64,000 nt of DNA from Planctomycetota bacterium (GCA_024280885.1 JAJRPF010000044.1:25622-89621); one strand, 5' to 3'. Shown: positions 25,662 through 40,429, numbered from the stretch's first letter. Numbers and translations are program-made. Notes: a model not told the origin generated them from the sequence alone.

Positions 25662-28600
25662 TCAGTGAAAGTCGCGACTCGGGCGACTCCGTGGTTGCCG
25701 ATCGATCGACGGTTGCCACAGGCTTTGCGCGACGAGATGCGTTACGCCTTGCTCGACCTGCAATTTGCCGGAGATGCCGAGGAAGTTGTTGCCGCGGGCG
25801 AGGGCGCTGAAGCGATCGAAGACCTGTTTCCAGATGACGACGTTCACGAAGCCGGTTTCGTCTTCCATCGTCATGAACGTGACTCCCGACGCAGTACCGG
25901 GGCGCTGGCGGCAGATGACGATGCCGGCGAAACGTACGCGACGGCCGTCGGGCCAGGTGGTCAGCGTGCGCGCGTCGGGGAGACCCTGGTCGGAGAGCAC
26001 GTCGCGCAACTCGGCGAGCGGATGGCCGCGGGTGCTGTGGCGCGCGGCGTCGTAATCCCAACTGATGGTCTCGAGCGCGTCGAGAGCGCGCAGGTTCGCG
26101 CTGCGTTCGCGGACCTCGATCGGTAGGTATGCGCGGTCTCCGGCGACGGGGGCACTACGCACCAATGCGCGCACTTCCCAGAGTGCGTCGCGACGGGTGT
26201 CCCCGAAGATCTCGAAGGCTCCCGCTTCGGCCAACGCGATGAGTGCGCGTTCGTTGACGGTCGTGCGCGCGACGAAATCAGCGAGTGACGTGAAGGACCG
26301 GAGAGCGCGTGCCGCGGTGATCTTCTCGCGTTCGCGCGAGCCGAGTTGCTTGACGTAGCGGAGTCCCATGCGGATGGCGAAGCCGCCAGTGCTGATCGGG
26401 TCCGGCGTGAGAGTGCAATCCCACGCGCTCGCGTTCACGCCGACGGGGAGGATCGTGACGCCGTGGCGCTTGGCGTCGTCCACAAGCGTGGCCGGTTCAT
26501 AGAAGCCCATCGGCTGCGCGTTCAGCAGTGTGCATGTGAACTCGGGCAGATAGTGCCGACGCAGCCAGGACGTTGCATACGAGATCAGCGCGAAGCTCGC
26601 GGCATGGCTCTCGGGGAAACCGTACTCGCCGAAGCCGCGAATCTGCTCGAAGACGCGTTCCGCGAAGCTCGGTTCGATACCCTTGGCCGTCATGCGTGTG
26701 AGGAGCCGATCGCGATGCTTCTCGATGCGCCCGGTCTTGCGCCACGCGGCCATGTCGCGCCGTAGTTGATCAGCCTCGCCCGGCGTGTAGTCGGCAGCGA
26801 CCACGGCGAGTCGCATCACCTGTTCCTGGAAGATGGGTACGCCGAGTGTCTTCTCCAGAACGGGGATCAGGCAGGCATGCGGATAGACCACCTCTTCCTC
26901 GCCGCGACGGCGGCGCAGGTACGGATGCACCATGCCGCCAGTGATGGGGCCCGGACGCACGATGCTGACCTCGATGACGAGATCGTAGAAGTTGCGCGGA
27001 CGCAGGCGCGGCAGCATCGCCATCTGGGCGCGGCTCTCGATCTGGAAGACGCCGACCGTGTCGCCGCGACAGATCATGTCGAAGGTCTCCGAGTCGTTCG
27101 CGGGGATTGTCGCCATTGAGAGTTCGCGCTTGCGCGTCTGCCGTAGCAGATCGAAGCAGAGATGCAGATGATGCAGCGCGCCGAGACCGAGAAGATCGAC
27201 CTTGAAGAGTCCGAGCGCCTCGACGTCTTCCTTGTCCCACTGGATGACGGTGCGGTTCGGCATCGTCGCGTTCTCAATCGGTACGAGATCATGGACCGGC
27301 GCATGGCCGAGCAGGAAGCCGCCGGGATGAATGGAGAGATGCCGCGGGAAGTCGAGGATCTCGTTCGCGAGGCGCAGCAGATGCGCATGTGCACCAGTGT
27401 TGCCAATGTTGTTCATCCCAGTGTCGTTTGTCCCCGCGCGTTCGAGGGCGCTCGTATCCACTCCTTCCCAGCGTGAGAGTTGGCGCGCAAGGCGGTCGAG
27501 TCCCGTCTCCGGCATCCCGAGCGCCTTGCCGACGTCGCGCACTGCCGAACGCGGCCGGTAGCGGATGAGATTGGCGACCATCGCGGCGTGGCTGCGGCCG
27601 TACTTCGCGTAGACGTGCTGGATCACCTCCTCGCGGCGCGCGTGCTCGATGTCGAGATCGATATCCGGCGGCTCGGCGCGCTCCATCGACAGGAAGCGCT
27701 CGAAGAGCAGACCCATGCGCACCGGATCGACGGCGGTGATCCCGAGGCAGTAGCAGACGGCGGAGTTGGCGGCCGAGCCGCGACCCTGGCAGAGGATGCT
27801 CTCGTCACGGCAGAAGCGGACGATCTCCCACATCGTCAAGAAGTAGCCCGGATAATCGAGCGCGTCGATGACGGTGAGTTCCTTGTCGAGTTGATTGCGC
27901 ACCTCGGTGGGCGCAGCACTGCCGTAGCGATCCACCGCGCCGCGGCGCACCAACTCGCGTAACCATTCCGACGACGTGCGGCCGTCGGGGAGGCGCTCGG
28001 ATGGGTAGCGGTAACGGATCTCGTCCATCGAGAACGTGCAGCGCGACGCGATCTCGAGGGTGCGTTCGAGGGCGGCGGGATCGTCACCAAAGAGCGCGTT
28101 CATCTCGGCGGGAGAGGGCAGATGATGTTCGGCGTTCTGACGCAGGAGTTGGCCGGCAGCCGAGAGCGTCACGCCGTGTCGGATGCACGTCAGGATGTCC
28201 TGCAGGTCGCGGCGAGAGCGCGCGTGGTAGAGCACCTCGGTGCCAGCGACGATGGGGGTGTCGAGTTGCGCCGCGAGTCGACGCAGCCGCGCTTCGCGAG
28301 CCGGCTCGTTGGCCTGCCGGTGACGGGTGACGAGAGCGTAGATCCGATCCCCGAAAGCATCCCGCAGGTTGGAATGCGGTGCTTTGGCTCCGTACATGGC
28401 GATGAGGCCTTCGGAGGCTGCGCAGACTTCCTCCCAGGTGACGCGGCTCGCGCCCTTCTCGGAGCGCAGACGGCCGGTCGTGATCAGTTTGCAGAGGCGC
28501 GCGTACGCAGGGCGGTCGGTGGCGAGCAGTGTGATGTCGCTGAGGTCGCCATCGTGTGGCCCGACGTTTACCTGCGAGCCGACGATCAGGTGCAGCCCGT

Positions 28601-28820
28601 GCTTCTTCGCGGCGACGTGCGCGCGCACGATCCCGTACACACCGTCGCGGTCGGTCACCGCAAGCGAGCGCAACCCAAGATGGCGCGCCTCTTCCACCAA
28701 CTCGTCCGGCGCGCTCGCGCCTTCCAGGAAGGAGAAGTGTGTCTTGCACCACAGCGGGACGTAGGTGCTCACGTCGTGACTTCCCGTCTCATTCGTGACG
28801 TCATTCGCCGCACTATTCAA
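25662..28820 (-). CDS. dnaE2: Error-prone DNA polymerase DnaE2/ImuC (alternative start GTG 28772)
   Basis: PHP domain ([10 protein letters not shown]), [28 protein letters not shown]; C-terminal SRDFH signature. Confidence 0.96.
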
Positions 28821-30444
28821 GCGTTCCGTGCAGGTACCAGCGGCGCCGCCGCCGGTCGTGGAAGACCCAGAAGAGGTCGCCGCGCGCGGTCTCTGCGAAG
28901 TGGTACTCGCGGTGAATTCCCGCTTGCACGCCGCCGTACTCGCCGGGTGGCGTTCCCCACCATGCGCCCGCGAGCACGTAGGGCCCGACGGAACGTCGCA
29001 CCGGGCCGCGTTCCATCCCCGCGAGCAACCATCCGTCGGGTTCGTGGCGGGGGCGAGGCGGGAGGATTGCGGGGCGGGTGAGGATGCGTCGGATGAGGGA
29101 GAGTGGGCCGTTGGCGGCGCGCATCCGCGGGTCGGGGAAGTGCACCTTCTCGACGGGAGTGAGGGCGAACGATGCCTCGGGGAGATGGCCGCCAGCGAGT
29201 CGCGCTTGTACCACGGAATAAGGACCGAGTTGCGCGCGGACGCGGGCGAGTGCGCGGGCGGCGGCCTTCAGATCGCGGCGCGGATTCTCGCGGAAGAGGC
29301 GCAGTTGTTCGGGACGCGCATAGACGCCGCGCGCGGTCAGGATCGCCTCCTCGACGCCACGCCCGAGACCGCGGTGCATGACCATCGCTTCGAGGCGCAG
29401 ACGCAGCAGCTCGAGGGCCTGCGCCGCGTCGAGCGTCGGGGCGGCGGGGCGCGCCTCCATCAGCCGCGGGGGACCGTCCTCCATCGAGAGCCGCAAGTGC
29501 AGCGAGACGAGCGCTTCGCGGCGCGCGGCGATCTCGGCGAGAAGGGGTGGCACCGCTTCTTCGATTGCGTAGAGCAAGCGATCGGTCTTCGTCTCCGGCA
29601 TCTCGAAGTGGATGCGGCGCACCGGCGGCTCGGTGGGTGGCCGGGCGGCAAGTGGCCGGATGAGCTCCCCCGACGCGGTGCGATGCAGGGCTTCGGCTTT
29701 CTTCCCGAAACGCGTCGCGACGCCTTCGGCCGGCAGTCGCAGGAATTCGTCCACGTTGCGGACGCCGAGTCGCCGAAGAGCGTCATGCAGTTTCGGCGCG
29801 ATGTCGAGTCGCGCGAGGGGCACGCGCCCCACCAGTCGACGCTCCTCTTCCTCGTCGACGACCAGATGCGCGCCGCCGCGTGATGCGCGCGCAAGCGCGT
29901 AGGTGCCGAAGCGTCCGAAGCCGCAGACCACGCTGCCCTGGAGATCCTCGGCGACGAGTGCCGTGTGGAGCCGTTCCGCCCATTCGAGGAGCGACGGATG
30001 CAGCCGCACGAGCCCGCCCGCGTCGATCCAGAAGACGCCCGGTTCGTGGTGAGCGGGTTCGACGGCGGGGGAGAAATTGTCGAGCAGGCGCGCCACCTCG
30101 TCCACTCCCGCAGCGATCTCCTCGGGCGATACTTCGGCCGCCGCGAGCCCCGGACAGATCCCCAATGCCGCGGCGTAGCGTTGCCCGGGCAGGACACGGC
30201 TTTGGCGCCCTTCCTCGTTGACCCACAGGATGCGTCCCTGCGGGTGATCGCGGTCCACCACCGCCGCCGGGCCCGCGCTGAACTCCGGCTGCCGTCGGAG
30301 AAGCAACTGGAGCGGAAACGCTGGCAGATCAACGCACGCCAACCGCTCCCGGGGGCCGTCGAGCCGCCGTTTCTGAGTGGGTCGTTTGCCCTCGTCCTGT
30401 TCCCTGTCCGTCCGCACTGTCCGTCCGCCTCCTTCTGCAGACAT
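28813..30444 (-). CDS. imuB: ImuB, Y-family polymerase-like mutasome accessory protein
   Basis: [14 protein letters not shown]-terminus; FSPAVE; C-terminal WW...REY...LFWVF motif; directly upstream of dnaE2. Confidence 0.9.
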
Positions 30445-30453
30445 ATGTCTGTA
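30436..30453. promoter_or_regulatory. Candidate LexA (SOS) box overlapping the imuB start codon
   Basis: TGCAGAC-ATAT-GTCTGTA palindrome; matches the site upstream of lexA. Confidence 0.7.
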
Positions 30454-30481
30454 TAGCATGGCAGGGACACGATACGAACTC

Positions 30482-30722
30482 AGAGGGTGTTCCCATAAAC
30501 AGTGGGAGCGCCAGCTTGCTCGTGGAGCCTGTCAGCAAGGCGCGGTCGCGAACGCGACTCCTGACGGAGTCATCGAGCGTCCGCAACGCAGCTGACAGGT
30601 TCCACGGGCAAGCCGCTTGCGGGCGCGCGATGTGCGCCGCGAGACTGGGGCACAGGCCGTCGAGGCCGTCCGAGCGCACATCGTGTGACTGGCGCCCCAT
30701 TGTTTATGGGAACACTCTCTTA
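30482..30722. repeat. ERIC/MITE-like element between vapC and imuB
   Basis: Terminal IR 30482-30514 / 30689-30720; inner hairpin 30515-30536 / 30591-30612 with aaggcgc..cgcgactc..gagtc..caacgcag core shared with 14096-14267. Confidence 0.75.
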
Positions 30723-31124
30723 GGCGGGGAGGAGCGTGATGGGGACGTCGAGGCCCGGCGCGGCGGCCATCCGGCGGTCTTTTGTCAGGACCCGTCCACC
30801 GACGCGGGCGGCCAGTGCGACGTAGAGCGCGTCGTAGAGGGAGAGATTGCCGCGGCGCTTCCATGCTCCGTTCAGGAGGAGGCAATGGGGGATGCGTTTG
30901 ATCTGGACGAGCGCGAGCATGCGGACCAGGTTTCGAGCCTCCACTCGAGTGAGTTCTCCGTGACGTTCGCAGCGAGCCAACGCGGATAGCACCTCTGCGT
31001 CGATCAACTCGGGCGCGCACACGTATCTGGACTCGAGAGCGCGACGTACTTCCTCCGCGCCGTCCTCGCGGAGCAGCATGGCGACGAGGGCCGAGGCGTC
31101 GATGACTGTGATGCCTGGCCTCAT
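30720..31124 (-). CDS. vapC: PIN-domain toxin (VapC/FitB family)
   Basis: VIDASALV, DAEVLSAL, SLYDALYVALA, LTKD acidic PIN residues. Confidence 0.9.
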   Translation of the reverse strand: MRPGITVIDASALVAMLLREDGAEEVRRALESRYVCAPELIDAEVLSALARCERHGELTRVEARNLVRMLALVQIKRIPHCLLLNGAWKRRGNLSLYDALYVALAARVGGRVLTKDRRMAAAPGLDVPITLLPA

Positions 31125-31375
31125 GGCATCCTCTCTTCCAACTCTGCTTCGCGCTCACGACGCACCGCAGCAATCATCTCGGCGGCCGATTCGGTCGTCT
31201 TGGTGGGGCCGAGCCGGTCGAGTTCCTCGAGCCACTCTTGGACCGTGGGGAGAGCCACTTCCCGCTCCAGCAGGCCGAGCACGTAGTCGCGGAGGCTGAG
31301 ACCGTCCAACTCTGCGCGCAACCGCAACTCGGCGTGCAGCCTTTGGGGGACATTCTTGATCTGGAGGTTGCTCAT
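31121..31375 (-). CDS. FitA-like ribbon-helix-helix antitoxin
   Basis: MSNLQIKNVPQRLHAELRLRAELDGLSLRDYV; ATGA overlap with the PIN gene. Confidence 0.85.
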   Translation of the reverse strand: MSNLQIKNVPQRLHAELRLRAELDGLSLRDYVLGLLEREVALPTVQEWLEELDRLGPTKTTESAAEMIAAVRREREAELEERMP

Positions 31376-31525
31376 GGCCTCATCATAGCATGCTACTGGC
31401 ATGTTCGCGCCTCGGTGGTTCGCTGCGGTACGCCTCGTACTCCCCTACTTCCCAGGTCGCACGGCGGCGGCGAAGGTTACGCAGGTTTCTGGAACAACCC
31501 GGTCGGAGTGCCAGAGGACTCGGAG

Positions 31526-32332
31526 CTACGACGTGGGGAGCAGGGACTCCACGCCTTCGGGGGCGCGGCAGGGCAGGGCGTCGGTCCAGCGGCCGGGGCG
31601 GCGGCGGTCGCGGAGGACGTCGAGGACTGCGAGGCAGGTGCCGTGTCCGGAGTCCAGGTCGGTCGAGCCCGAATCGGTCGAACTGGGACTGAGGGGAGCG
31701 CGGCGGGCCGCGGCGCGGAGCGAGATCAGGGGCCCGAGGGAGGCTGCGTCGTCGGATTTCTCGGTCAGGCAGACGACCGCGGCTTCGTGCTCGCGGGCCA
31801 GGGCAGCGAGGCGGTTGAGGAGTGCGGGCGGAATGCGCACGCGGCTCCCGGCGGAGCCGAGGTCAAGGATCACTAGGCCGAAGGCGCCGGAGCGCACGAG
31901 CCGTTCGGCCGCGCGTGGGACGTCGGCTGACCTCGGCGCGCGAACGATCGGGAGTGCGGCGAGATCGACCCCGGTTCGGGCGGCGTCGGGAGGGAAGAAG
32001 AGGTCGGCATCGACACCCACCCAGGCCGTCGTTTCGCCACAGCGCTGCGCGTCGCGGACGAGAGCCAGCGCCAGTGTCAGCACCGCCGTCGCTCTGCCCG
32101 ATCTGTGTCCACTCGAATCACGGCCACCAGCGCGATCGATCAGGTTCTTGCCCGTGTGGGAAGAGAGCTCGACGAGTCGCCCGACGACTTCTGCGAATCG
32201 CCACCGGGCTGGGCTTTTCCCCACTGCATTCGAGCCGTGCGAAGCCGAGCGGTCCACAGTCATGCCGCGGCGCACGCCCGGCACTTGCAGCGATCCCCAA
32301 GCTTCCAGAGAACCGGATGGGAGGCGTCTCAT
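31526..32332 (-). CDS. imuA: ImuA, RecA-like mutasome protein
   Basis: GRLVELS, FFPPDAARTGVDLAALPIVR, LVRSGAFGLVILDLG; ATGA-coupled to lexA. Confidence 0.85.
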   Translation of the reverse strand: MRRLPSGSLEAWGSLQVPGVRRGMTVDRSASHGSNAVGKSPARWRFAEVVGRLVELSSHTGKNLIDRAGGRDSSGHRSGRATAVLTLALALVRDAQRCGETTAWVGVDADLFFPPDAARTGVDLAALPIVRAPRSADVPRAAERLVRSGAFGLVILDLGSAGSRVRIPPALLNRLAALAREHEAAVVCLTEKSDDAASLGPLISLRAAARRAPLSPSSTDSGSTDLDSGHGTCLAVLDVLRDRRRPGRWTDALPCRAPEGVESLLPTS

Positions 32333-32976
32333 ACGAGACTCCTGCGTACCTCGATCACACGTCCCAGGATTCTGAAATCAGCGCGCGCGGGGACGATGAC
32401 CTCGAAGTCGGGGTTCTCGGGATGCAACTCGGCCCGGCGACGCCCGCGGGGATCCTTCCCGTAGCGCAACGTCTTGACGGTTGCGTCGTCGCCGACCGAG
32501 GCCACGACGACATGACCGTCGCGCGGTCTTCCGGAACTCAGCCTTCCGGAACGGCGCACGATGACCACATCGCCGTCGAGGATGCCCGCGTCGCGCATGC
32601 TCTCGCCCACGACGCGCAACGCGAAGAGGTCATCCGCGACAACTCCGCGCGGCAGCGCCGTCATGGCGACGTGGCCGTCGGGGTCCTCGATCGCCGCGCT
32701 CAGACCGCCAGCTTGCACGCGACCGACCATCGGTACGAGTACCGGCCGGAGTTCACCCTCCGAACCATGCGGCAGGCGATAGCCGCGCGAGACGCCCGCC
32801 TCTTTCGTGAGCCGCCCGTCGGCCACCAAGCGCTCGAGGTGCGTACGGGCGGACTCGACCGCGCGTAGACCGGCCGCCTCTTGCACTTCGCGTACTGTTG
32901 GCGGCCGGCCCGCAAGCAACCGCTCACGCACGAAGCGATAGATGCGTTCCCGGGTCTCGCCGCGCGCTCTTTGCAT
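32329..32976 (-). CDS. lexA: LexA repressor
   Basis: PPTVREV wHTH; VQAG cleavage site; VGESM (Ser) and ATVKT (Lys) catalytic dyad; LHPENPDF. Confidence 0.93.
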   Translation of the reverse strand: MQRARGETRERIYRFVRERLLAGRPPTVREVQEAAGLRAVESARTHLERLVADGRLTKEAGVSRGYRLPHGSEGELRPVLVPMVGRVQAGGLSAAIEDPDGHVAMTALPRGVVADDLFALRVVGESMRDAGILDGDVVIVRRSGRLSSGRPRDGHVVVASVGDDATVKTLRYGKDPRGRRRAELHPENPDFEVIVPARADFRILGRVIEVRRSLV

Positions 32977-32994
32977 GTCGGCACAATAGCATGT

Positions 32995-33016
32995 GATACA
33001 GACGGATGTCCGTATC
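32995..33016. promoter_or_regulatory. Candidate LexA (SOS) box upstream of lexA
   Basis: GATACAGAC-GGAT-GTCCGTATC, 9-bp arms with 1 mismatch. Confidence 0.75.
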
Positions 33017-33030
33017 GTTGGCTGTGCTGC

Positions 33031-33903
33031 TTATCCCACGATGATCCGGCGATCCACCTCCATGCGCCGGCGGCGGAGGTGGAAGGTGAGGCCGACGAGC
33101 CCGAGCGCGAAGAGGGCCCACGTGCCCGGCTCGGGTGTGCGGGCGACGTCCATGCCGCCGCCCGATCCACCACCGCTATTCGCGCCGAACGTGAAGCGGT
33201 CGGCTGCCCAACGGTCCGTCTTACTGCCGACGAGTACGACGGCCTGATCGAATGCGAGGCCGCCATCGGCCGGGTCCGTGATGACGCCGAGGAAGCGCGT
33301 CGATCCGTTGCCGCCGCCCGATCCCAGCACGAAGTCACTCGTGAAGACGAGGAGCCCCGCCGCGTAGAGACGGAGTTGGCCCTCGCTCCCGACACCCGTC
33401 TCGAAGTCGATGAGATCGACGCCGAAGTGGCTGACTCCTCCGGCCGGCGACGTCGTGAAGTCCACGAGCAGGCCGCTGCGTCGTGACGTGCTGACGGCGG
33501 TGCTGTCCACGCCCCAGCTGCCGCTGCCGACGCCACCGCTCTGGCTTGTGGGCGACTCGACCTTGATGGAACTGAGTGCGCCGGTATCGCCACCGACCAC
33601 TCCGGGCGTGATCGTGCCCGTGGGCGTCGCGGAAAACTGCAGGTCGAATGCCGTGTAGCTGAACGCGGCCCCGCCGACGGTCCCGGAGCGGGAGACCGAC
33701 GCGACCGAGCCGACCGTCGGGTCGGCTGCGAATGCGCCGCCCGAGTCGATCACCGTGGAGTCGCCGCGCGTGGCGACGGCGGATTCGAAGCCTGCGCGAT
33801 CGTCGTTGAAGATGGTGTACGAGCCGCCGCGCGCGACGGTCGCGGCGAAGGTCACGAGGACGAGAGACAGGACGTACGAGAGGTGCTGAGCAAGGGAATT
33901 CAT
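33031..33903 (-). CDS. PEP-CTERM sorting-domain surface protein
   Basis: Signal peptide; Ser/Gly/Thr-rich body; C-terminal TPEPGTWALFALGLVGLTFHLRRRR. Confidence 0.9.
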   Translation of the reverse strand: MNSLAQHLSYVLSLVLVTFAATVARGGSYTIFNDDRAGFESAVATRGDSTVIDSGGAFAADPTVGSVASVSRSGTVGGAAFSYTAFDLQFSATPTGTITPGVVGGDTGALSSIKVESPTSQSGGVGSGSWGVDSTAVSTSRRSGLLVDFTTSPAGGVSHFGVDLIDFETGVGSEGQLRLYAAGLLVFTSDFVLGSGGGNGSTRFLGVITDPADGGLAFDQAVVLVGSKTDRWAADRFTFGANSGGGSGGGMDVARTPEPGTWALFALGLVGLTFHLRRRRMEVDRRIIVG

Positions 33904-35309
33904 CGGTTGTTCCTTTTGGCGTTTGTTTCTCCGGCGAGTCGCCGAATAGTGGCTTCCGTGTCGAGTACCTGAGCGTTGGTTGGTGCCAGGTGATGGGCCC
34001 AGGCGGCGAGTCGTTGCGCGGCTCCGAACGCGTCGCCGGGGGCCCGCGAGTCGCGCACCTCGGCGGCCCCACGCAGGCTCCATGCGAGATTGTTCGCGGC
34101 CATGACGAGGCCCGGGTCCCGCGCCAGTGCCGCGGTGAAATGACGCGCTGCCTCCGCGCGATCGCCCCGGCGCTCTGCAGTCATGCCGAGGACGAAGCGC
34201 GGATGAGCGTCGAGCGGGCGCGCTGCGACGTCACGGCATGCGGCCGAAGTCGCAGCGATCGGCCCGGCTGCGCGTGCGCGAAGAAGCGTCTCGGCGAGCC
34301 GCGCATCCAGCCGCTCCCGCTCGCGCTCGCGCCCCGGGAGCAGGAAGGTCGCCGCGCGATCCAGCTCGCCTGAGCCGACGTGATACCACCCAAGGAGTCG
34401 TCGGCCCGCGGCCCCCGCATCGCCATCGGGGAGTTGCTCGATGAGTTCGAGCGTCGCCGAGAGCTCCCGCGCGCGACCCCACCGAAACCCGAGCGCGAAC
34501 GCGATGTCGGGATCGTCTGGACGTGCCTGGAGCGCGCTGCGCAGATGAGCTTGCGTGAGCCCGGCGAGTTCCGCCTCTGCCGCCCTGCGCGCGTGAAGCA
34601 CGTGCGTCGCGGCACTCTCGATCTCCGGCGACCGTGCATTCAATTCGCGCTCGATTGCCTGCGAGATATCGGTGCTCTCGGCGCGTTGGAGAGCGGTTGT
34701 CAGGAGTGCTCGTACACGCTCGTCGGAGGCGTCCTGTGACTCATCGACGAAGCGCGCCGTTCGCGCGTGACGTGCTGCATCGAGAAGATCGAGCGCACCT
34801 CCATCTTCGTAGTTCGCCGCGCGCTCAAGATCGCTTGCTGCCGCGTCGAAGCGCCCGACTCGGGCGTGCAGTATCGAGCGCGCGCGCAGAAGGCCACGTG
34901 TCGCGCCGCCCTCGCGGAACGCTCGTTCAAGGATCTCTGCGGCCGTCGCGCGATCCCCTTCCGCGAGCGCCCGAGATGCCAGCGCGACGGCGGGCGCATC
35001 CCAATCCGGTGCCAGATCCGCCGCGCGCCGGAACGCCGCGTGCGCTTCTTCGCCGCGCGACTGCAGGCGCAGGCACTCTCCGAGGATCTGCCACGCGCGG
35101 GCGTCAGCCGGATGGTGCCCGAGGTGGCGGCGCATCCGGATCTCGGCTGTCGCGCTCTTCCCCGCGAGCACCTCGCGCCTCGCCAAACCCAGTTCGTGAC
35201 CAGGCGGCGCGGCTGCTCGGAGATCGCCGCGAGCACGAATAGTCAGCACGATCAGGAGGGGGGAGATGAGGAGGACGAGGGCGAACGAGATGGCGAGGAC
35301 GCGGCGCAC
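33900..35309 (-). CDS. Membrane-anchored TPR-repeat protein (start uncertain)
   Basis: N-terminal TM; TPR-like repeats (AWQILGECLRLQSRGEEAHAAFRRAADLAP; AANNLAWSL); ATGA overlap with the PEP-CTERM gene. Confidence 0.7.
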   Translation of the reverse strand: MRRVLAISFALVLLISPLLIVLTIRARGDLRAAAPPGHELGLARREVLAGKSATAEIRMRRHLGHHPADARAWQILGECLRLQSRGEEAHAAFRRAADLAPDWDAPAVALASRALAEGDRATAAEILERAFREGGATRGLLRARSILHARVGRFDAAASDLERAANYEDGGALDLLDAARHARTARFVDESQDASDERVRALLTTALQRAESTDISQAIERELNARSPEIESAATHVLHARRAAEAELAGLTQAHLRSALQARPDDPDIAFALGFRWGRARELSATLELIEQLPDGDAGAAGRRLLGWYHVGSGELDRAATFLLPGRERERERLDARLAETLLRARAAGPIAATSAACRDVAARPLDAHPRFVLGMTAERRGDRAEAARHFTAALARDPGLVMAANNLAWSLRGAAEVRDSRAPGDAFGAAQRLAAWAHHLAPTNAQVLDTEATIRRLAGETNAKRNNR

Positions 35310-40392: not shown

Positions 40393-40429
40393 GAGGGCGC
40401 CCCCACTGTTCTTGGGAGCACCCCCCTAG
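40390..40429. repeat. Minimal copy of the TAAGAGGG-type terminal hairpin
   Basis: taagagggcgccccca-ctgttct-tgggagcacccccctag resembles the arms at 30482 and 30689. Confidence 0.55.

Follow-up and report, generated by a model that had tools for sequence, protein, structure and literature searches.

Among described systems, the closest to the locus analysed here is the lexA2-imuA-imuB-dnaE2(imuC) cassette of Pseudomonas putida, a damage-inducible operon repressed by its own LexA2 (PMC3901139, PMC5261740). A second precedent is the split mutasome, found e.g. in Mycobacterium tuberculosis, in which imuA'-imuB and dnaE2 lie apart and each piece has an SOS box (PMC3901139, PMC3919608). The Gram-positive SOS (Cheo) box CGAAC-N4-GTTCG is used by the LexA proteins of Bacillus subtilis and of Actinobacteria (PMC9578287, Table 1). 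We analysed a stretch of 64,000 nucleotides (nt) from a Planctomycetota bacterium (GCA_024280885.1 JAJRPF010000044.1:25622-89621), hereafter the window, with positions counted from its first letter. It carries lexA, an imuA-like gene, imuB and dnaE2, and the minus strand encodes all the genes considered here. Very likely, the window presents an SOS mutagenesis cassette that regulates itself and is divided into two units repressed by LexA, lexA-imuA and imuB-dnaE2. A self-repressed mutagenesis cassette is already known as a kind, and the finding extends this picture rather than overturning it. As in P. putida, lexA is the first gene and has an AC-N4-GT dyad in its own promoter. The LexA2 box of P. 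putida is GTAC-N4-GTGC and that of Xanthomonas TGTACAAATGTACA; the P. putida box has only the AC-N4-GT core in common with the operators described below. LexA2 was reportedly described by Abella in 2004 as a derivative of the Gram-positive LexA, and Abella is said to have reported in 2007 that the LexA in the cassette position of P. putida regulates little else. Unlike the P. putida cassette, the one in the window is divided into two units, each with a box of its own. The detached parts thereby resemble those of M. tuberculosis in keeping a LexA box ('persistent LexA regulation'), but the boxes there serve the global LexA of the host, those in the window a LexA encoded by the cassette.

The case is carried by two palindromes, which a prediction made from the sequence alone had placed at 32995-33016 and 30436-30453, and which are indeed found there. 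The first, GATACAGACGGATGTCCGTATC (32995-33016), stops 19 nt upstream of the lexA start codon ATG at 32976 on the minus strand, the second is TGCAGACATATGTCTGTA (30436-30453). A search of the 64 kb for TACRGAC-N4-GTCYGTA with up to two mismatches returned these two sites and no other, against 0.19 expected matches, and a count of two was reached in one of 100 shuffles of the window. A matrix of 22 columns, derived from 22 sites that all came from relatives with the window sites excluded, ranked position 30434 first (34.7 bits) and position 32995 second (28.4 bits). The third match reached 13.3 bits and the best of 50 shuffles 14.7 bits. The third match, at 476, was dismissed, since it is located within the open reading frame of a helicase and below the shuffle maximum. 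Half-sites of the Gram-positive type, GAAC-N4-GTTC, occurred once in the window, at 34917, which is at chance level, and a search of viral contigs with the 18-mer box gave three matches, about the chance expectation. On the coding strand, the lexA operator (32995..33016, minus strand) reads GATACGGAC-ATCC-GTCTGTATC and the imuB operator (30434..30455, minus strand) TATACAGAC-ATAT-GTCTGCAGA.

Conservation was assessed in 12 close relatives (L001-L003, L014, L087-L094) with LexA proteins 56-84% identical to that of the window; they are Planctomycetota where named, one record being labelled PLA2. The 13 LexA proteins, 12 from the relatives and one from the window, form a single clade with a support of 99 in the Shimodaira-Hasegawa-like approximate likelihood ratio test (SH-aLRT). 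All 12 relatives have a box upstream of lexA, with the consensus nAnnCGGAC-ATnT-GTCTGCnTn. The box at imuB was present in all ten relatives in which this region was covered, in the nearly invariant form TATACAGAC-AT(A/C)T-GTCTGCATA; it stands behind a TGnTA element, and the neighbouring sequence diverges. The proposal that a second operator keeps imuB-dnaE2 under LexA control thus gained support. Other parts of the original prediction had to be corrected. The outer TAC/GTA is common to the two sites in the window, but is not kept at the lexA boxes of the closest relatives, where only C(A/G)GAC...GTC(T/C)G is conserved. Also the spacer, given as a free N4, is restricted: nearly all relatives have ATCT or ATAT there, and a wider family has AWWT. 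The clade variant of the box can be written as RC(A/G)GAC-AT(C/A)T-GTCTG(Y). The window is rich in dispersed inverted-repeat elements, and on this ground the palindromes may be taken for chance matches or structural repeats, i.e. hairpins, terminators or mobile-element ends that serve no regulatory protein. The pattern and matrix statistics of the 64-kb window against its shuffles speak against this explanation, as do the fixed position of the boxes relative to the -10 elements in the 12 relatives, the lack of a T-run and of any terminator call in the scan, and changes in the half-sites that are not compensatory. Conservation effectively refutes it, and we consider it extremely improbable.

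The prediction that both palindromes are operators of the cassette-encoded LexA is well supported. A toxin-antitoxin pair lies between both sites in the window and in several relatives, and the VapB/FitA antitoxin between the units, or else a host factor, might be the binding protein instead of LexA. However, the boxes are present where such a pair is missing (in L089, in L001 and in almost the whole wider family), the one gene that always adjoins a box is lexA, and the palindrome at the antitoxin promoter, ATAGCATGCTAC, is a different one; binding by a protein other than LexA is therefore quite unlikely. The lexA gene (32329..32976, minus strand) encodes a protein of 215 amino acids (aa) with a LexA DNA-binding domain and an S24 peptidase domain. 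The product matched the N-terminal winged-helix LexA DNA-binding domain PF01726 with 27.2 bits (cut-off 23.7), the S24 peptidase PF00717 with 74.1 bits and the whole-protein equivalog TIGR00498 with 123.2 bits, above the cut-off of 110.95. It aligns over the full length to Escherichia coli LexA, with the cleavage site A89-G90 and the catalytic residues S126 and K168 corresponding to A84-G85, S119 and K156; among 31 aligned homologues, these residues are invariant. The segment of residues 8-88 aligns to the DNA-binding domain of E. coli LexA (1lea), where the residue numbering is identical. In the proposed mechanism, a dimer of this LexA would occupy each dyad, with 5-bp half-sites 4 bp apart, and block RNA polymerase. 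Upon DNA damage, RecA filaments would stimulate the self-cleavage of LexA at A89-G90 via S126 and K168, and this cleavage would de-repress both units.

The promoters predicted for the two units place the operators where a bound repressor would interfere with transcription. The octamer ATAGCATG (coding strand CATGCTAT) has three copies in the window, at 30453-30460, 31385-31392 and 32986-32993, compared to 0.26 expected; they are situated upstream of imuB, the antitoxin gene and lexA, respectively. The octamer reads as part of an extended -10 element (TG-n-TAnnnn) in each of these three promoters. The extended -10 of the lexA promoter, TGCTATTGT (32983..32991, minus strand), precedes the ATG by only 6 nt, so that the lexA mRNA is probably leaderless. 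In the relatives a TG-n-TAnnnT is kept at a fixed distance from the lexA ATG: nine aligned loci of this leaderless type have the lexA box, then TG-n-TAnnnT, and the ATG 6-7 nt later. In the predicted leaderless promoter, the lexA operator extends from about -40 to -19. The left half of the operator, cGGACA, is -35-like and stands 18 nt upstream of the -10, doubling as such an element. In unit 1, lexA-imuA, the operator CGGAC-ATCC-GTCTG would thus cover the -35 region and the spacer of a leaderless extended -10 promoter. Unit 2, imuB-dnaE2, is predicted to start from a second extended -10 promoter with the operator CAGAC-ATAT-GTCTG on the -10 hexamer and the transcription start. The extended -10 of imuB, TGCTATACA (30450..30458, minus strand), overlaps the left arm of the box, and the box overlaps the hexamer TATACA (30450-30455) and the predicted transcription start.

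The description of the second site as lying over the imuB start has to be revised, as the ATG at 30459 belongs to the conserved TGnTAnnnn extended -10, CATGCTATACA. The likely start of imuB is the GTG at 30417 behind the Shine-Dalgarno sequence GAAGGAGG (30428-30435), not the ATG at 30459 called by the open reading frame finder. A leaderless imuB starting from the ATG inside the box (30442-30444) was considered and is unlikely, several relatives being devoid of that ATG; all relatives have a Shine-Dalgarno-led imuB start 25-45 nt beyond its position. Counted from the GTG, imuB (28813..30417, minus strand) encodes a Y-family protein with an IMS domain. The dnaE2 gene (25662..28820, minus strand) overlaps the imuB stop codon and encodes an error-prone homologue of the DNA polymerase III alpha subunit, with 1336 bits on the error-prone DNA polymerase model NF004225. 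In unit 1, the stop codon of lexA is overlapped by the imuA-like gene (31526..32332, minus strand), whose 268-aa product has a weak RecA/ImuA match.

A scan with one genome per species defined a wider family of 80 loci with LexA proteins 53-73% identical; a metagenome scan with the clade alignment yielded just six distant loci. The family comprises Planctomycetota, Acidobacteriota (many of them Vicinamibacterales), Verrucomicrobiota, Nitrospirota, Hydrogenedentota, Binatota, Gemmatimonadota, Myxococcota, Thermodesulfobacteriota, Spirochaetota, Chloroflexota and Chromatiaceae. In 78 of the 80 loci imuA and/or imuB adjoins the LexA gene, in most of them together with dnaE2. An iterated matrix gave as family box a 22-bp palindrome, ATACCAGAC-AWWT-GTCTGGTAT, with the box form ATACCAGACAAATGTCTGGTAT. 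In 72 of 81 loci the 350 nt preceding lexA contained the palindrome ATACCAGACAWWTGTCTGGTAT, whose usual distance from the start codon is about 37 nt; in many loci its outer ATA and TAT overlap a TTGAYA -35 and a TATnnT -10. The half-sites switch independently between CAGAC and CATAC; this independent variation spoils the pairing of a hairpin and fits recognition by a protein dimer. Applied to 1.32 Mb of family loci, the family matrix detected 65 boxes upstream of lexA and ten others, compared to none in shuffled loci. Eight of the ten extra boxes precede a detached imuA or dnaE2 (L010, L026, L027, L033, L041, L047, L050, L064), and the remaining two are located in a short lexA-imuA gap (L037) and at a distal position 643 nt upstream of lexA (L066). 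Detached pieces of the cassette carry their own box, and the second box in the window is one instance of this general rule. As observations beside the box, nearly identical cassette LexA proteins were present in metagenome-assembled genomes of different phyla (L005/L019, L006/L007/L008, L069/L077/L043/L058), with Hydrogenedentota and Nitrospirota as one grouping and Thermodesulfobacteriota, Chloroflexota and Binatota as another, which means either that the cassette was recently transferred laterally or that the binning is in error. Cultured Chromatiaceae of the genera Thiorhodococcus, Thiocystis and Thiococcus (L020, L039, L064, L066) also have a cassette-linked LexA with the family box.

The regulon of this LexA consists, by a modest preference, mostly or only of the cassette. 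The rival possibility, a rather doubtful one, is that the lineage has no SOS repressor other than the cassette LexA, which would act globally, with the box also at recA, uvrA, ssb and other repair genes. This corresponds to the wider reading of the original prediction, which looked to recA, uvrA, ssb and radA. A comparable case is Sideroxydans, in which a laterally acquired LexA rebuilt a full regulon, and the protein in the window passes the LexA equivalog model. In Planctomycetes, LexA makes no use of the E. coli box, and Chromatiaceae are said to lack other LexA homologues (PMC3108266) yet carry the cassette LexA, which may therefore be the only LexA in some lineages. Against a global role, no box was found at a non-cassette gene, neither in the 64-kb window nor in the 1.32 Mb around the 80 related cassettes, the LexA gene always heads the cassette, and the LexA in the same position in P. 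putida regulates little else (PMC3901139). If a global role were true, a mobile mutagenesis module would have supplied the damage repressor of its host, and early and late induction would be ordered by the weaker lexA box and the near-perfect imuB box.

The operators in the window are related to the family box by their core. We defined the family operator class by the core C-A-G/T-A-C...G-T-C/A-T-G and the spacer A-W-W-T in front of lexA or of a cassette gene that is detached, and the boxes in the window qualify. The imuB box core, CAGACATATGTCTG (CAGAC-ATAT-GTCTG), agrees with the family core in 14 of 14 positions and the lexA box in 12 of 14, with the half-site CGGAC and the spacer ATCC as differences. 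The clade differs from the family in that the ATAC/GTAT flanks are lost and the promoter-distal half of the lexA box is CGGAC; the -10 of the clade sits 4-7 nt further from the box, and a second box at imuB is conserved. The idea of a lineage-specific SOS box applies in part: the flanks and the CGGAC half-site are specific for the clade, but the core CAGAC-AWWT-GTCTG occurs in about 12 phyla. On sequence grounds, we regard the motif as a Planctomycetota clade variant of a widespread CAGAC-N4-GTCTG operator, not as a stand-alone new motif.

The type of box tracks the LexA phylogeny, with the variant clade monophyletic at an SH-aLRT of 99, and the type of helix 3. The helix AVQTAREHL pairs with the ATACCAGAC box, AVRTAQQHL of Vicinamibacterales with AACAT(T/A/G)C-AAAT-GTATGTT and GL(R/K)AVESAR(T/V/A)HL of the Planctomycetota clade with the variant box. 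When aligned to E. coli LexA, the proteins of the clade have A39, E41, S42 and T45 at positions which we take to correspond to base-contacting ones of the E. coli protein. The original prediction had taken the recognition helix AVESAR(T)HL to fit an altered specificity. The helix alone does not account for the difference, as AVESARAHL outside the clade pairs with the standard CCAGAC...GTCTGG. A simple helix-to-box code was dropped, because AVESARAHL proteins accompany both types of box.

The resemblance to the Cheo box comprises the 5 + 4 + 5 geometry, the outer C/G, the AC...GT positions and the preference for an ATAT-like spacer; CAGACATATGTCTG has 10 of 14 bases in common with the Cheo box CGAACATATGTTCG. 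Unlike in the Cheo box, the half-site is AGAC or GGAC, not GAAC, with positions 2-3 of the half-site swapped from GA to AG or GG. The protein differs from Gram-positive LexA in the recognition helix and in the linkage of its gene to imuA-imuB-dnaE2. In a plasmid collection, the matches listed were only Gram-positive LexA proteins with 34-41% identity, the closest named ones from Streptomyces and Bacillus with 36-40%. Literature searches found no published LexA box of the type CAGAC/GTCTG, which is weak evidence in view of their thin coverage of the key papers on SOS boxes. The widespread box thus appears to be undescribed in print, and the claim that the RGAC-N4-GTCY variant had not been described agrees, on the same weak evidence, with the searches. 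With this box, a concrete operator is available for the LexA lineage that accompanies the imuA-imuB-dnaE2 mutasome across a dozen or more mostly uncultured phyla, which allows the prediction of damage-inducible mutagenesis genes in metagenomes.

LexA binding, the transcription starts, the RecA-dependent cleavage and the timing of induction are what we infer for this cassette. The imuB box is nearer to the consensus than the lexA box; if E. coli SOS boxes are a guide, the polymerase genes, imuB-dnaE2, would be repressed more tightly and released later. Several observations weigh against the proposed regulation. The difference in box strength is partly circular, the matrix having been built from the same kinds of site. 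The sites in the window score poorly on the family-wide matrix, with 2 bits for the lexA box; these low scores reflect the missing ATAC...GTAT flanks of the clade, and the link to the family hence depends on the 10-base core. A generic scan for the sigma-70 consensus detected no promoter in the region, so the promoter model is carried by the conserved extended -10 elements alone. The sequencing runs containing the region are DNA metagenomes only.

The internal operator probably let the cassette break up within the Planctomycetota clade without loss of damage control, by insertions of toxin-antitoxin pairs and of a repeat element, by 4.5 kb of unrelated genes and by an inversion. One or two toxin-antitoxin pairs reside in the imuA-imuB gap of the window, L087, L088, L091 and L093. 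In L002 and L014, imuA is separated from imuB by 4.5 kb of unrelated genes, those for a Ser/Thr kinase and an HNH protein among them, and in L003 imuB-dnaE2 is inverted relative to lexA, with the two boxes in a common intergenic region. L089 has the internal imuB box without a toxin-antitoxin insertion, indicating that the box is older than these insertions. The clade illustrates how a second, internal operator can free a mobile operon to fragment while it stays under damage control.

In the window, the toxin-antitoxin pair (30720..31375, minus strand) consists of a FitA/VapB-like antitoxin (31121-31375) and a PIN toxin (30720-31124). It has its own extended -10 at 31382-31390, without a LexA box. 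The ATG of the antitoxin is likewise located 6 nt past its -10, so this gene also looks leaderless, and the -10 element lies within the palindrome ATAGCATGCTAC, a possible operator for the antitoxin itself. In the Planctomycetota clade, pairs of ribbon-helix-helix/MazE antitoxins and PIN toxins land recurrently in the stretch from imuA to the imuB operator, with two pairs in L088 and none in L089. Between the PIN gene and the imuB promoter, an inverted-repeat element of about 245 bp (30479..30723) with 28-nt arms is inserted, 19 nt upstream of the imuB extended -10. Its terminal inverted repeats are 89% complementary, and internal inverted repeats are present. The element was not found in the relatives; a third, diverged arm is situated about 10 kb away, at 40402-40423. 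It looks like a dispersed element of the miniature inverted-repeat transposable element (MITE) or repetitive extragenic palindromic (REP) type.

Upstream of lexA, a gene for a PEP-CTERM protein (33031-34083) ends 15 nt from the operator, leaving about 55 nt for the lexA promoter; the same neighbour occurs in L088, L090, L092 and L093. At the other unit, the direct repeat CGGACGGACA occurs twice on the coding strand (30405-30414 and 30418-30427), flanking the predicted GTG of imuB. It holds operator-like CGGAC(A) half-sites and is partly kept in close relatives; the repeat could represent extra half-sites, a feature of the 5' leader or a mere coding repeat (RTxRT).

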